Part shown: piece after piece, positions 4,494 through 55,707 of the stretch
How positions within the stretch are numbered: the stretch's first letter is position 1
Layout of the letters: each line of letters begins with the position of its first letter
From: Dehalococcoidia bacterium
Lineage (GTDB): Bacteria; Chloroflexota; Dehalococcoidia; Bin125
Assembly: GCA_965242485.1 (NCBI GenBank)
Contig: CBDESM010000003.1
Location: 1,549,362 to 1,613,361, forward strand
Direction: 5' to 3'
DNA: 64,000 nucleotides
The notes under the pieces: generated by a model
What the model saw: the letters and a program-made list of their open reading frames with translations, nothing else
Told to the model about the DNA's origin: nothing
Databases searched by the model: none
Made by a program: the position numbers and the translations under genes

Positions 4494-6245
4494 TCAACGG
4501 ATGGCGGACTCGCCGGAGACGGCGCGGACGATGTCGAAGTAGGAAACGACGATGATGAAGATGATGAAGGCGGCGAGGCCGGCGAGGTGGACGAGGCCCT
4601 CGCGTTCGGGCGAGATGCGCTTCCCGCGGCGGAGGATTTCGATGAAGATGAAGAAGATGCGTCCGCCGTCGAGCATGGGCAGGGGGAGGATGTTGATGAT
4701 GGCGAGGTTGAGGGAGAGCAGGGCGGCGAGCTCGATCAGGCGGGCCCAGCCGGCGCGCTCGATGACTTCGCCGGTGACGCGGGCGATGCCGATGGGGCCG
4801 GAGAAGTCGAGGCCGGGGCCGCCGGCGATCCAGGAGCGGATGCGGTTGCGGACGATCAGGACGGTGTCGACGATCTGGCCGCCGGAGCGGGCGATGGAGT
4901 CGAAGAAGCCGTAGCCGACGCGGCTGGTGCCGGTGAGGTCGTTGCGGACGCCGATGCCGGTCGCGCCCTGGGGGATTTCGATTTCGGTGCCGGGCGGGGG
5001 ATGGCGCGGATCGATGCCGAGGGAGCGGTAGAGGGCGGAAGTGCGGATCCAGGGCTTGGCGGCGATCGCGCCGATGGTGTCGCCGTCTTCCACGACGTAG
5101 GAATCGCCGCCGGGCAGGTCGATCACGCGGCCCTCTTCGAGTTCTTCAGATTCGACGCCCCAAGCGCCGAGGACCTGGCCGGCGGTGACTCCGAGCAGAT
5201 CGGCGATCTCGGTGACGGATTCGCCCTCCCGGACGACGTGCCGGAGTTCGGAGGGGGCGAGGCGGAGGTGGACGGGCGCCTCGAAGGTTTCGGCGATGCG
5301 GACGTCGGCGGGGACGGAGGCGAGGGAGCCCGCGCCGTCTGACGCGGGGCGCTCGACGGTGAAGACGACGTTTTCGCCGAGGTTGGTCTGGGTTTCGCGG
5401 AGCAGGTCGGTGGTGTTGCGGATCGGCGTTCCGTCGAAGGCGACGATGCGGTCGCCGGGCTCGATGCCGGCGCGGTCGGCGGGCGCGCCGCTGATGACGG
5501 AGGTGACGATGACGGGCCCGTTGGGGACGTCGTCGGGGATGAGGTTGCCGATGGTGAAGAGGAAGACGGGCAGGACGGCGTTGACGGCCGCGCCGGCGGC
5601 GAGGATGACGATGCGGGTGGCGCGCGATTTGGAGCCGAGCGAGTGGGGGTCGGCGCCGGTGGTGATGCCGATGACGCTCTCGAAGCGTTCGAGGGCGGCG
5701 TCGGTGTCGGCCTGATCGCCCGATTCTTCGGCGCTGCGGAATTGGGCGACGATCGAGGGGGCGGCGGCGAACTCGGGGGCTTGGCCCGATTCGCGGTACA
5801 GGTCGCGGCGGGTGAAGCTCCAGTTCTTGATCGTGCCGTCGTCCTCGGTGCGGCTGTAGCTGATCATCGCTTCGCCGGAGGCGAGGGCCTCGGAGTACAT
5901 GCGGGCGAACTGGAGGCGGTCGTAGACGCGCTTGCCGCCGACGTGGCTGATGCGGTCGCCGGCGCGGAGGTATTCGGGGTCGATCAGATCGCGGTCGACG
6001 CCGTGGACGAGGATGCCCGAGGATTCCTCGCCGGTGAGGCGGACGAAGCCGCCGATGGGGAGCCAGTTGATCGAGTAGAGGGTGCCGCGGAAGACGCGGC
6101 CGGTGATGCGGGGGGGGAGGCCGACGCCGAACTCCTCGACGCGGACCTTGGCGAGCTTGGCGGTGACGAAGTGGCCGAGCTCGTGCAGGATGACGAGGAC
6201 GAGGAGGATGGCGATGAAGGCGAGGACGTAGGCGACGGTATCCAT
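4494..6245 (-). CDS. rseP: RseP/Rip-type site-2 zinc metalloprotease (M50) with PDZ domain and inserted LysM pair
   Basis: HELGHF zinc motif, C-terminal NILPLPMLDGG motif, PDZ segment, two LysM-like segments; start MDTVAY overlaps the dxr stop (ATGA). Confidence 0.85.
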   Translation of the reverse strand: MDTVAYVLAFIAILLVLVILHELGHFVTAKLAKVRVEEFGVGLPPRITGRVFRGTLYSINWLPIGGFVRLTGEESSGILVHGVDRDLIDPEYLRAGDRISHVGGKRVYDRLQFARMYSEALASGEAMISYSRTEDDGTIKNWSFTRRDLYRESGQAPEFAAAPSIVAQFRSAEESGDQADTDAALERFESVIGITTGADPHSLGSKSRATRIVILAAGAAVNAVLPVFLFTIGNLIPDDVPNGPVIVTSVISGAPADRAGIEPGDRIVAFDGTPIRNTTDLLRETQTNLGENVVFTVERPASDGAGSLASVPADVRIAETFEAPVHLRLAPSELRHVVREGESVTEIADLLGVTAGQVLGAWGVESEELEEGRVIDLPGGDSYVVEDGDTIGAIAAKPWIRTSALYRSLGIDPRHPPPGTEIEIPQGATGIGVRNDLTGTSRVGYGFFDSIARSGGQIVDTVLIVRNRIRSWIAGGPGLDFSGPIGIARVTGEVIERAGWARLIELAALLSLNLAIINILPLPMLDGGRIFFIFIEILRRGKRISPEREGLVHLAGLAAFIIFIIVVSYFDIVRAVSGESAIR

Positions 6246-23558: not shown

Positions 23559-24779
23559 TCAGCGTTTCCGTGCGAAGCCGCCGGGGATGATGCCGCGTCC
23601 GAGGCCCTTGATTCGGCGGTCTTCCGACTGCGCGGCGCGCTCGGAGAGCGTGTGCAGCGCCTCGCCGAGCGTCGTCTCGCGGAACAACCAGCGGTTCAGC
23701 GCCGCGTCGTCGGGCTGCGCGCCGGGCTGCGCCGATGCGGCCTCGAAGTACCAGGCGCGCATGTCGTCGGCGGCGTACTTGAGCCGGATCGGCATCGGGT
23801 GGCCCCAATCGCCGCCGGGGTCGTGGTCCTCGAAGGCGTTGCGGGCGATCAGCTCGGCCATGCGCTCGATTCCGTCGGCCCCGACGCCGGAGCCGCCGAC
23901 CGACGTGCGTCCGCGTTCGCGCACCCATTGGTCGTGCCAGGGCTGGAGCCGGCGGATCTCTCCGGTCAGGCGCTGCAGCAGCGCGTCGGCGCCGCTCGCC
24001 GGTTCGGGCGCGGCGAGCTGGACGGGGCAGGTCCACTGCCCGCCGTTCGCGTCCGCCGGCACGTCGTGCGGATAGTCGGCCAGCGTCGTCTCCGCCGCCG
24101 TCTCGAGCAGTCCGAGCGCGGCGCGGAGCACGCCGGTCTGGAACCCGGCGTCGCCGGGCGCGCCCAGCGGCAGGCCGAGCGGGAACGGGACGAAGAGGGA
24201 GCGCGGCGGGCGCATGCCGGCGGCGTGCTCGCGGATCAGGCTGATCCCGGCCGTGGCGACGCCGGCCCGCTCGATGTAGTGCGAGAGCGCGCAGACCGCG
24301 CGCGTGCACCACGGTCAAACCGGCGTCAGCAGCACCGCGTCGGCGCCGTCATCGCGCAGCAGCCGGCCGACTTCCTCGCCCGTTTCGCGCAGGCCCGTCG
24401 GGTCGCCCTGCGCGCCCATGAACGAGTAGTGGTAGTTCGCCACTCCGCCGATCTCCCCCGCCGCGGCCAGCTCGCGCAGGCGCTCGATCGGGAAGACGAC
24501 GTTCGGATCGCCGCGGAAGCCGGAGCGGTCGAAGGCGATCGAGGCGTGAGACATGCTCAGTTCGCCGGCGTCGACGTCGCCGGGGATCAGCCGGTAGCCC
24601 GTGTCGCCCGCTTGGAAGGGGCGGTCGCCGCGCTGCGCGAGGCCGGCCGTGGTGACGATCGCGATCGTGGACTCGGCGAGCGGCTTGGGCGCGATCCAGG
24701 GCGCGGGCTCGATCTCGGGCAGGTCGAGCTTGAGCAGGCCCTCGGCCATGGCTGGATGGAGATCGGCGGTGCGGACCAT
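23559..24779 (-). CDS. GrdB/PrdB-family selenoprotein (glycine/betaine/sarcosine/D-proline reductase protein B-like) with in-frame UGA at 24315-24317
   Basis: Two ORFs in the same frame separated by a single TGA; flanking sequence DAVLLTPV-U-PWC resembles the PrdB Sec region; SECIS-like hairpin just downstream. Confidence 0.7.
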
Positions 24780-24904
24780 GCTGTCGGCCTCCTCGCGAGC
24801 CGCGCGGCGTCGACGTGCGCGGCTCGGCGCAGGATAGGCGCGGGCAGGCGGTACGATTGGGCGCGGAAAGCAGGTCCCGCGGCGCGGGCAGAGCGGAGGC
24901 GCAG

Positions 24905-25246
24905 ATGCCGGAAGACACCGTCGAGGTCAGCGTACGGATGGCGGATCGGGGCGAGGTCGGCTACCGCATGATCTCCGCCTCGATCAGCAGCCGCGAAGGG
25001 TCGCTCGCCGGCGCGCCGGTCGACTTCAGCATCGTCGAGGGGCCGGGCGCGCTGACCCAATCCGGAGGCCGCGACCGCACGGTCGAGTCGGACGAGTGGG
25101 GCATCGCCGAGGTCAACTGGTACCCGGAGCAGCACCCGCGCTCGTCGCCCGAGGCCGAGGCGGTCCAGACCGTGACCATCCGCGCGCTCTGCGAGACCGC
25201 GGCCCAAGTCGATCTGAACGTCGCCAGCCCGATCTGGAAGCACTGA
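24905..25246 (+). CDS. Hypothetical small protein
   Basis: 113-aa ORF from MPEDTVEV; no motif. Confidence 0.3.
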   Translation: MPEDTVEVSVRMADRGEVGYRMISASISSREGSLAGAPVDFSIVEGPGALTQSGGRDRTVESDEWGIAEVNWYPEQHPRSSPEAEAVQTVTIRALCETAAQVDLNVASPIWKH

Positions 25247-25385
25247 TCAGCGAATCCAGCGCATCCCCGCAGCCAGCGCCGGAGCCGCCGCGCGGGCGCT
25301 ACGTCGTTCCCGACGAGCTGATCGAGCGCGTCGCCCGGGCGCGGCTCGAGCGCAGCCGGCTGCCGATCTACGACCAGACCGCGGG

Positions 25386-25974
25386 CATGGGCCTGCTGCC
25401 GCTCATCGCCTTCCTGGTCCTGCTCGAACTGGCCGACGTGCGCTGGGCGATCTGCGTCTCGCTCGCCGTCGCGCTGGCCGTCTTCGCGGTCCAGCGGCGG
25501 CTCGAGCGGAGCGGCGGGCTGGTCTTCAAATTGGCGCTGCTGGGCCTGGTGACGCAGATCGGGGCGGGAATCGCCGGCATCATCGTCGAGTCCGAGCGCG
25601 TCTTCCTCTGGCAGGACCCGGTCGGCGATTTCTCCATCGCCGCGCTCTGCTTCGCTTCGCTGGTGCTGCGCTGGCCGATGATCGGCCGCTTCCTGGGCGA
25701 GCTCTTCCCGCGCGTCGCCGCGGCGCTGCCCGCCGGCCACAAGGTCTTCTTCTGGATCACGATCATGTTCTTCGTCGAGAACATCGGGATGGGCTTCGTC
25801 CGCGTCTGGATGCTCGAGGCGACCGACACCTCCGCTTTGGAGTACGCGCTGTTCTCGCGCGCCGTCGGCATCCCCTTCCGCATCCTCCTGATCGTCGCCG
25901 GCTGGTGGCTGATCCGCCGCGCGATCCGCAACGAGGAGTACGCGATCCTGCTCGCCGGCCGCAGCCCCCGTTAG
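25386..25974 (+). CDS. Integral membrane protein (start uncertain)
   Basis: Multiple hydrophobic helices; start could be further upstream. Confidence 0.4.
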
Positions 25975-25983
25975 CCGGGGCCG

Positions 25984-27060
25984 CTAGCCGAAGTGGTCGG
26001 GCAGGCCGTACTCGGCGAAGAGGCCGCGGAAGTATTCGATCACGTCCGGGTGGTAGGGGATGCCCAGCTCGCGGCGCTCGATCTCCTGCTCGTGTTCTTC
26101 GAGGCCGGCGTAGAGGACGCGCTCCTGGCCCGGCGCAGGCGGGGTTTCGCGCAGCGCCTTGAGGTACGCGTCCATCCCCGCCTTGAACTCGTCCACGTCC
26201 GTGAACGCGGCCACGTTCATCACCGTGAAGTGGTGGCCGACGCCGTTGTTCCGCTGGACAGCGGAGCCGGCGGCGGAGAGGATGCCGGCGAGGATGTCGA
26301 TCGAGGCGGCCAGCGAGTAGCCCTTGTGGGAGCCGATCTCGCGGGTGCCGCCCAAGGGCAGGATCAGGAACTCGTCCGGCGTCTGGGCGGGTTCCATGAT
26401 CGGCGTGCCCTCGGCGTCGGCGACCCAGCCGGGCAGCAGCGCTTCGCCGAGCCGCTGCGCCAGCCGCACCTTGTTGCCGGCGACCGACGACATCGAGGCG
26501 TCGAAGATGAACGGGGCCTCTGCGCCGGCCGGGGCCGCGATCGAGAGCGGGTTGAGGCCGACCATCGCCTTGGAGCCGAAGGTGGGCGCGACGAGCAGGC
26601 CGCCCACGGTCATCGAGATGCCGATCATGTCGTGTTCCAGCGCCATCTGCGCGTGGAACGCGGCCGCGCCGTAGTGCCGCCCGTTGTTGGCCACGACGGT
26701 CGCGACGCCCGCGTGCCGCGCCTTCTCGATCGCGATCTCCATCGCCTGCGGGCCGATCGTCAGGCCGAGCCCGCGGTCGCAGTCGACCGTGGCCGCGGCC
26801 GGGTGATCGCGCTCGATCTTCATCACCGGCGCCGGGTTGATGTCGCCCGATTTCAGCCCGTCGACGTAGAACCGCATCATGTTCGAGATGCCGTGCGAGT
26901 CGATCCCGCGGATGTCGGCGTAGAACAGCGTCTCGGCCGAGCGTGCCGCGTCGGCTTCGGGCATCCCCAGGGCGCGGAAGATGTCTTGGATCGCGGCGCG
27001 CACGTTCGCCGCCGGCATGCGCACGGCGATCTCGTCGGGGACTTTGAACTGCTTGAGCAT
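25984..27060 (-). CDS. Ldh_2 family malate/L-lactate/sulfolactate dehydrogenase
   Basis: Type-2 malate/lactate dehydrogenase family sequence (HKGYSLA motif region). Confidence 0.75.
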   Translation of the reverse strand: MLKQFKVPDEIAVRMPAANVRAAIQDIFRALGMPEADAARSAETLFYADIRGIDSHGISNMMRFYVDGLKSGDINPAPVMKIERDHPAAATVDCDRGLGLTIGPQAMEIAIEKARHAGVATVVANNGRHYGAAAFHAQMALEHDMIGISMTVGGLLVAPTFGSKAMVGLNPLSIAAPAGAEAPFIFDASMSSVAGNKVRLAQRLGEALLPGWVADAEGTPIMEPAQTPDEFLILPLGGTREIGSHKGYSLAASIDILAGILSAAGSAVQRNNGVGHHFTVMNVAAFTDVDEFKAGMDAYLKALRETPPAPGQERVLYAGLEEHEQEIERRELGIPYHPDVIEYFRGLFAEYGLPDHFG

Positions 27061-30435: not shown

Positions 30436-30530
30436 GCCACGAGTTGATGCCGGGGTGGTCCGCTTGAGGCGGGCCTGAGAGCACACCCGCTGAACCTGAT
30501 CCGGGTAATGCCGGCGCAGGGAGCGTTCCA
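30436..30530 (+). promoter_or_regulatory. TPP (THI-box) riboswitch
   Basis: GGGGUG ... CUGAGA ... ACCC ... GAACCUGAUCCGGGUAAUGCCGGCGCAGGGA matches the THI-element consensus directly upstream of thiD. Confidence 0.75.
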
Positions 30531-30544
30531 GGTCCGCCCGCAGC

Positions 30545-55034: not shown

Positions 55035-55111
55035 TGGCGCGCCCGGCAGGACTTGAACCTGCGGCCTCTGCCTCCGCAGGGCAGCGCTCTAATCCGCTGA
55101 GCTACGGGCGC
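55035..55111 (-). tRNA. tRNA-Arg (anticodon reads GCG)
   Basis: Cloverleaf; anticodon loop CTGCGGA; T-loop GGTTCAAGTCC. Confidence 0.7.
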
Positions 55112-55153
55112 GGGTCGCGTCGCGGCCGCGGGGGCCGCGCTGCGGGTGATGGA

Positions 55154-55240
<87 letters not shown>

Positions 55241-55319
55241 ACGCGGCTCGGCGCGCCATGCGCGCCGCTGCTCCTCGCTTTCGGCGGCGCCCCGCCGGGC
55301 GTCCGCAACGTTGGGCGGC

Positions 55320-55397
55320 TGGTGGGCGATGCAGGACTTGAACCTGCGGCCTCTCGGATGTGAACCGAACGCTCTAGCCAGCTGAGCTAATCGCCCC
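55320..55397 (-). tRNA. tRNA-Val (anticodon CAC)
   Basis: Anticodon loop TTCACAT; T-loop GGTTCAAGTCC. Confidence 0.8.
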
Positions 55398-55432
55398 CTT
55401 GGTTCGGCAACGCCGCCCGGCGCTTCGCGGCG

Positions 55433-55508
55433 GTGGTAGCAGCGGCAGGACTCGAACCTGCGACACGGGGCTTATGAGTCCCCTGCTCTGCCAACTGAGC
55501 TACGCTGC
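55433..55508 (-). tRNA. tRNA-Met (anticodon CAT)
   Basis: Anticodon loop CTCATAA; T-loop GGTTCGAGTCC; G1.U72 wobble. Confidence 0.7.
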
Positions 55509-55707
55509 CGCGCCTCACGGCCGGCGGGCCCGCGCGGCGGCGCCCGCCTCCCGCAACGCTATCCGCATCGCCCCCGCTCGTCAAAGCGCTCCGCCGGACC
55601 CCGCCGGCGGGCGCGCAGCGCGGCCGTTCGCCTACGATCAGGTGCAGACAGGCAGAAGCGGCCCGCACCCGGCGCCGCGCCGGCCCGCGCAGGGGAGCGC
55701 GCGAACG

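Follow-up and report, generated by a model that had tools for sequence, protein, structure and literature searches.

The 64-kb stretch of DNA considered here (hereafter the window; 64,000 nucleotides of contig CBDESM010000003.1 from a Dehalococcoidia bacterium, assembly GCA_965242485.1) carries on its minus strand, at 24779..23559, what is very probably one gene, whose product would be a stand-alone selenoprotein of 406 residues belonging to the PrdB/GrdB 'protein B' superfamily. The locus presents one reading frame with a conserved internal UGA, a hairpin resembling a bacterial selenocysteine insertion sequence (SECIS) just downstream of that codon, similarity to the protein B families and no conserved partner gene. 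We infer the selenocysteine (Sec) decoding machinery of the source genome, as we do the catalytic cycle and the reductant that are discussed below.

The minus-strand frame running from 24779 to 23559 comprises 406 codons, is interrupted solely by a TGA at 24315-24317 (UGA-155) and ends at its true stop, TGA 23559-23561; that it is one gene is indicated by the single frame, by read-through homologues and by the ratio of nonsynonymous to synonymous substitution (dN/dS). The upstream open reading frame (ORF; 24779..24315, 154 residues) terminates at the internal TGA, and the listed downstream ORF (23559..24215, from an ATG at 24215) is the tail of the same 406-codon frame. An earlier reading made from the sequence alone had proposed that these two ORFs share one frame with a single TGA between them, and both its coordinates and the motif that it gave around the internal TGA (ADAVLLTPV-U-PWCT, a UxxC motif, which continues as ...PWCTRAVC... 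in the read-through product) are borne out exactly. The 33 codons which separate the TGA from the ATG at 24215 encode PWCTRAVCALSHYIERAGVATAGISLIREHAAG, a segment that is strongly conserved across phyla and that contains several of the protein's best-conserved residues. The second residue of the U-x-x-C motif, Cys158 (24306..24308), is presumed to be the resolving cysteine and is kept in at least 98% of 96 homologues. A Shine-Dalgarno-like GAGGAGG (24788..24794), read from the sequence, lies 8 nt 5′ of the ATG at 24777-24779.

The internal UGA is a genuine selenocysteine codon (U155, 24315..24317). A scan of species-representative genomes gave at least 597 related loci, of which the best 80 were used, together with three contigs from the nearest relatives (L001-L083). 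The best 80 of the at least 597 loci come from Dehalococcoidia and other Chloroflexota, Azotimanducaceae and other Gammaproteobacteria, Alphaproteobacteria (including Ca. Puniceispirillum), Actinomycetota, Desulfobacterota, Burkholderiales and a spirochaete bin. Whether orthologues carry Cys or TGA at this position had been singled out by the sequence-only reading as a check, and both are found: all 97 homologous sites from the 83 loci, across several phyla, have a TGA at exactly this position, within a family motif P-[VI]-U-P-x-C-[TS], and Cys replaces it in a smaller number of full-length homologues (P0003, PVCLLCT; P0040, PVCPYCT; P0051, PVCPACS; P0063, GCPLCH) which are rarer and more distant than the Sec forms. 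The same codon recurs in the lengths of the database proteins. A query with the N-terminal 154 residues returned 792 matches, and the best 120 are almost all 153-156 residues long, showing that they are cut at the same UGA codon; the first homologue search gave mainly fragments of about 250 residues beginning just after it. When the window is compared with its nearest relative (L001), Nei-Gojobori dN/dS amounts to 0.16 before the TGA and 0.12 after it. The ratio stays below 1 against more distant relatives, downstream values ranging from 0.12 to 0.64, so that both sides of the TGA are under purifying selection. The genuine stop between separate genes in all orthologues, which the sequence-only reading had named as the outcome that would speak against it, is thus not what the family displays: the TGA is conserved and there is coding conservation on either side of it.

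Within the window, a scan based on G+C content at third codon positions (GC3) identified 24315-24317 as the only TGA with coding-like composition on both sides and no nearby restart; the other matches were normal gene junctions or antisense frames, and we rejected them as further selenoprotein candidates. UGA also terminates the 406-codon gene itself and the neighbouring sucC, which indicates that the organism uses the standard code and therefore that recoding must depend on context. Some full-length homologues depart from the Sec/Cys pattern: Gly stands at this position in P0037 and P0039 (PLGPMCT), and P0035 is missing the entire stretch that surrounds the Sec position. Such relatives may have lost catalysis or may function differently; for P0035, an artefact of the gene model is another possibility.

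A hairpin just 3′ of the UGA and within the coding sequence (24276..24312, minus strand) probably provides the context for recoding. It is built from a lower stem GUGGUGC (24306-24312)/GCACUAC (24276-24282), an internal loop, an upper stem GCGCGC (24298-24303)/GCGCGC (24287-24292) and an apical loop GGUCU (24293-24297), and the full local structure including the lower stem folds in the window and in L001. RNAfold gives -44.7 kcal/mol for an 81-nt stretch (z = -2.1). The hairpin starts 3 nt after the UGA (the sequence-only reading had put it at about 5) and the upper stem at 11 nt. Covariation, together with an fdhF-like loop and spacing, marks the upper stem and apical loop (24287..24303) as the SECIS core. 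We examined an ungapped alignment of 95 distinct sequences (A3), reaching from 6 nt before to 51 nt after the UGA, in which 86.9% of the cells of the upper stem (columns 21-27/31-37) are paired and double-sided changes occur in six of its seven pairs. The doubly changed upper-stem cells number 63, compared with 21 ± 3.5 in shuffles (0 of 500 reach 63) and with at most 36 in slid controls whose partners were moved by 1-3 columns. In the apical loop, G28 never varies, and at least 90% of the sequences have U29.

The sequence-only reading had likened this hairpin to the E. coli fdhF SECIS, a comparison which is sound with regard to loop and spacing. Both hairpins lie within the coding sequence just 3′ of the UGA, and both carry the same GGUCU loop, at 18 nt after the UGA in fdhF and at 17 nt in the window. 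The stem sequences, however, are unrelated, no bulged U is evident, and in most members of the family the loop is not GGUCU but a 3-nt GUN which a C-G pair closes. The covariation also has consequences for the protein. In one coupled change, ACG-CGC-GCC...GGC-GCG-CUC becomes ACG-GGU-ACC...GGU-ACC-CUC, so that over A3 columns 22-36 (window 24288-24302) R160...A164 (CGC...GCG) is exchanged for G160...T164 (GGU...ACC). Since some compensatory changes in the stem alter the encoded amino acids, the RNA structure constrains the protein sequence here, and the 'conserved' A-V-G peptide which follows the UxxC motif may partly reflect RNA as well as protein constraints.

Independent support for Sec decoding in this family comes from four loci, in metagenome-assembled genomes of different phyla, in which sel genes adjoin the selenoprotein gene, some of them with a complete Sec-decoding gene set. 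These are tRNA-Sec, selA and selB in Ca. Puniceispirillum (L082, 9504-12964); selD, selA, selB and tRNA-Sec in an alphaproteobacterium (L077, 1201-5797); selA, tRNA-Sec, selB and selD in a member of the Chloroflexia (L027, 3303-7855); and selD and selB in a member of the Dehalococcoidia (L032, 9363-12299). This arrangement suggests that the selenoprotein gene and the Sec trait are linked; the two have perhaps been transferred together, and the gene may be the main selenoprotein gene of those genomes.

The 406-residue product has two domains. The first (residues 23-229; 24093..24713, minus strand) is a PrdB/GrdB-like alpha/beta domain, recognised by PF07355, by TIGR04483 and in the model of a homologue. 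The Pfam GRDB profile (PF07355) aligns with residues 23-152 and scores 41.8 bits, above its gathering cut-off of 22 (E = 1.1e-10; profile positions 214-345 of 347), and the best NCBIfam match, PrdB TIGR04483 (E = 1e-35; residues 31-229 aligned with positions 24-222 of a 238-position model), spans the Sec site, so that the family assignment of the sequence-only reading, for which a comparison with the GrdB profile had been proposed, stands. The score of 123 bits nevertheless lies below the TIGR04483 equivalog cut-off of 300. TIGR01918 (glycine/betaine/sarcosine/D-proline reductase selenoprotein B subfamily) is likewise missed, at 54 bits against 65.45, as are TIGR01917 GrdB, NF040794 GrdF and NF040795 GrdH (47.1, 61.6 and 59.8 bits against 602, 800 and 775), whose matches cover only the C-terminal half of the respective models.

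The second domain (residues 240-406, about 165 residues; 23562..24062, minus strand) appears from profile and phmmer searches and from the homologue model (helices H232-361) to be all-helical and specific to this family. No Pfam or NCBIfam model matches residues of about 240-406. A phmmer search with the C-terminal part alone against 1.84 billion representative proteins returned 419 matches, the top 150 of which are all members of the window protein's family and nearly all post-UGA fragments; this identifies the domain as family-specific and the Sec forms as dominant. Among 96 reconstructed read-through homologues, nearly all of 392-457 residues and of the same architecture, 35 positions, distributed over the two domains, are kept in at least 98%, including R63, S80, D84, R85, D91, N93, H117, U155, P156, C158, T159, R183, R193 and Q214 in the PrdB-like part and C251, E274, D339, Y344, E346, W364 and T369 in the C-terminal domain. 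An AlphaFold model was made of the Cys homologue P0003, which is 49% identical to the window protein (predicted local distance difference test score 91.9; predicted template-modelling score 0.88). It consists of an alpha/beta domain of alternating strands and helices followed by six helices, and is predicted to place C121 (equivalent to U155) at the N-terminal end of a helix which follows a beta-strand, with C124 (equivalent to C158) one turn further on.

The family to which the window protein belongs is not new, and the window gene adds a member to it rather than a new concept. It was catalogued in 2005 and 2008 as 'Proline reductase PrdB': this UxxC family was the third most abundant selenoprotein family in the Sargasso Sea selenoproteome, with 42 Sec genes and 1 Cys form (Zhang, Fomenko & Gladyshev 2005, PMC1088965), and a subsequent Global Ocean Sampling (GOS) survey listed 235 Sec and 110 Cys forms under pfam07355 (Zhang & Gladyshev 2008, PMC2398784). 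It is one of the most abundant marine selenoprotein families. Among 19 sequences with PVuP or PIuP in the Sargasso supplement, AACY01068648 (VPVuPICTGAVGALSNF...) shares 44% identity with the window protein (BLASTP, E = 1e-71) in an alignment which covers all 251 residues after the Sec, including the C-terminal domain. The marine 'PrdB' proteins and the window protein form the same family, with a shared UxxC motif and pfam07355 match and nothing essential that differs. The papers searched treat it simply as PrdB and do not discuss either the extra domain or the absence of PrdA. Related 'proline reductase' selenoproteins have also been recorded for Anaeromyxobacter, Geobacter and an Olavius symbiont, and recent reviews still give only 'D-proline reductase, TIGR04483'. 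Our literature search found no functional study of the stand-alone long form, and the term 'PrdB-like' yielded no papers.

Public gene calls systematically misannotate the family as two genes: a protein of 153-156 residues (P0071-P0190), named 'glycine/sarcosine/betaine reductase selenoprotein B family protein' or 'D-proline reductase PrdB', and a 'hypothetical protein' of about 250 residues (P0001-P0062). Recognition of the UGA and its hairpin restores a protein of 400-450 residues that public records now split, here and in hundreds of relatives; species-representative genomes contain at least 597 loci of the family. For what looks like a distinct, two-domain and partner-less enzyme, 'D-proline reductase PrdB' is probably an inherited misnomer. 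PrdB of Clostridium sticklandii and Clostridioides difficile (TIGR04483) does have a homologous alpha/beta domain, in which Sec occupies the corresponding place within a UxxC motif, but the window protein adds a helical C-terminal domain of about 165 residues which is absent from the 238-position PrdB model, and neither a PrdA pyruvoyl subunit nor PrdC was recognised near its gene. GrdB, GrdF and GrdH (PF07355, TIGR01917/TIGR01918) share the Sec-containing region, yet the window protein matches only the C-terminal third of the Pfam GRDB profile and is without the N-terminal half of GrdB, and no grdA, grdE or grdC was recognised near the window gene. Given that no nearby pyruvoyl partner was recognised, and given the extra domain and scores far below the PrdB and GrdB cut-offs, we do not call it a classical B subunit of D-proline or glycine reductase.

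When all ORFs within 8 kb on either side of 84 loci were clustered, no recurrent partner gene emerged, in agreement with the stand-alone character claimed by the sequence-only reading. Apart from the two halves of the gene itself and their antisense shadows, no neighbour is common to more than 19 of the 84 loci, and what sharing there is reflects lineage-specific synteny. The gene is usually monocistronic. It stands alone among unrelated genes in contigs with Pfam annotation, one from a gammaproteobacterial member and one from the Cys form, and the annotated neighbourhoods contain only unrelated genes such as Ldh_2, DUF3159, sucCD and aconitase. None of them carries a GRDA, PrdA or PrdC annotation, this being a comparison of annotations in which no PrdA, PrdC or GrdE sequence or model was run against the loci.

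Taken together, these data are compatible with the following scheme. A ribosome meeting UGA-155 would encounter the in-gene hairpin, with its upper stem 11-16 nt and its GGUCU loop 17-21 nt past the UGA. According to the general bacterial mechanism, the hairpin would recruit SelB with Sec-tRNA(Sec), so that selenocysteine is inserted in place of termination; at the terminal TGA of the gene, which is without such a context, translation would stop. In the folded protein, the N-terminal PrdB-like domain is predicted to present U155-P-W-C158 at the N-terminal end of a helix, and the family-specific helical domain would supply further invariant polar residues, C251 among them. By analogy with PrdB and GrdB, the selenolate may attack an electrophilic centre of a small-molecule substrate, C158 may resolve the adduct by forming a Se-S bond, and the enzyme may then be regenerated by a dithiol, for example thioredoxin.

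Several observations weigh against this interpretation. The window contains neither a tRNA-Sec (ARAGORN) nor SelA, SelB or SelD (tblastn with E. coli queries). The lower stem, which was part of the hairpin originally proposed, is paired in 55% of cells family-wide, mostly because of fixed Cys and His codons, and is not conserved outside the window's close relatives; we therefore rejected it as a family feature and retain the upper stem and loop. None of the Rfam SECIS models matches the window at its gathering score, or meaningfully at E ≤ 10, which is unsurprising for bacterial SECIS elements. The PDB yielded nothing significant, either by sequence or by Foldseek with the P0003 model, the weak Foldseek matches being generic flavodoxin/B12-binding-like folds. 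Finally, the substrate, the reductant and the type of reaction are proposed by analogy.

Of the alternatives, the one which survives best, while still being unlikely in our judgement, is that the protein is a general thiol/selenol-disulfide oxidoreductase or peroxidase, whose UxxC would act as a thioredoxin-type redox centre and not as the active site of a substrate-specific bond-cleaving reductase. The predicted position of the motif at a helix N-cap is the classical geometry of a redox motif, the gene is monocistronic with no conserved partner, and the selenoproteome surveys place 'PrdB' among the thiol-dependent redox selenoproteins. However, the near-invariant residues, 35 in number and many of them charged or polar, extend over both domains, and with a third Cys that does not vary and a 165-residue domain of its own the protein exceeds the needs of a simple redox carrier. 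Moreover, the fold is PrdB-like as opposed to thioredoxin-like, and tandem arrays of two or three diverged paralogues (see below) suggest substrate diversification. It is far less probable that we are dealing with a true PrdB of D-proline reductase, or a GrdB of glycine/betaine reductase, with PrdA, GrdE or GrdA encoded elsewhere. TIGR04483 is the best NCBIfam match, and the name is in use in public annotation and in the literature; set against this are scores of 123 versus 300 bits for PrdB and of 47-62 versus 602-800 bits for GrdB/GrdF/GrdH, a C-terminal domain for which the 238-position PrdB model has no counterpart, hosts that belong mostly to marine, sponge-associated and pelagic lineages, and the failure to find a recurrent partner within 8 kb of the 84 loci, where PrdA and GrdE sequences or models were not run directly. 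A genuine stop at the TGA, implying two separate genes, a pseudogene or an assembly error, has a negligible probability even though gene callers and public annotation split the locus (154-residue 'GRDB family' protein and hypothetical protein of about 250 residues) and the Sec machinery of the source genome is deduced indirectly, since it would have to accommodate a TGA retained in all 97 sites across phyla, 33 codons between the TGA and the first ATG that are among the best conserved of the protein, full-length Cys homologues, purifying selection on the downstream frame and a covarying hairpin at SECIS distance.

Returning to a selenoprotein of the protein B superfamily as the preferred interpretation, we can offer a more specific and distinctly speculative proposal for its function, which we regard as doubtful. 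The protein might be a single-polypeptide Sec reductase of bacteria that are abundant in the sea and largely pelagic and sponge-associated. Its helical domain would take the place of the pyruvoyl subunit found in the Stickland enzymes, and it would cleave a C-N or C-S bond without Schiff-base activation, for instance in an osmolyte of the quaternary-amine or sulfonium type, in the manner of betaine reductase. If this were true, such a self-sufficient enzyme would represent a new, oxygen-tolerant selenoenzyme activity, and it would explain why complete selC-selA-selB-selD clusters travel with the gene in some lineages.

In Dehalococcoidia and some Alphaproteobacteria the family has expanded by way of tandem paralogues, and many genomes hold two or three diverged tandem copies of the selenoprotein gene. 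Arrays are found in L033, L036 (three copies, at 4892, 7082 and 8478), L044, L047, L050, L056, L059, L063, L066-L068 and L075, all from metagenome-assembled genomes (MAGs) of Dehalococcoidia and Alphaproteobacteria, and each copy has its own TGA and hairpin. One further member, on a 2.6-kb contig binned as the archaeon Nitrosopumilus (L043, JABMOR010000145.1), has a bacterial-type in-ORF hairpin and is probably a binning error rather than an archaeal representative of the family.

With respect to neighbouring genes, the clade of the window (L001, L002 and L004-L017, the L004-L017 group being mostly Dehalococcoidia MAGs) shares Ldh_2, a DUF3159 membrane protein, sucC, sucD and tRNA-Ser(GCU). 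Such synteny points to a related Chloroflexota genome, probably of the Dehalococcoidia and with 69.4% G+C, as the origin of the window. The Ldh_2-family gene (malate/L-lactate dehydrogenase-like; 25984-27060, minus strand) lies 1.2 kb upstream of the selenoprotein gene on the same strand and is kept throughout this clade. The Ldh_2 family includes the pyrroline/piperideine-2-carboxylate reductases of D-proline and D-lysine catabolism. A DUF3159-like membrane gene on the opposite strand (25096-25974) separates the two, and they are therefore probably not co-transcribed. In two Chloroflexota loci, a same-strand short-chain dehydrogenase (SDR) gene follows the selenoprotein gene, after 18 bp in L017 (9248-10027) and after 85 bp in L080 (9286-10077). 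Elsewhere, SDR and enoyl-CoA hydratase genes recur nearby at variable distance and in variable orientation, and for this reason we treated them as background and not as operon partners. Further afield in the window are a thiamine pyrophosphate (TPP) riboswitch (30441-30539, plus strand; Rfam RF00059, 66.9 bits), at the place of which the syntenic relative L002 has the thiamine-biosynthesis genes ThiD, ThiE, ThiO, ThiS, ThiG and TenA, and a group of four tRNA genes (Arg-GCG, Leu-CAG, Val-CAC and Met-CAT) within about 480 bp (55035-55509, minus strand).

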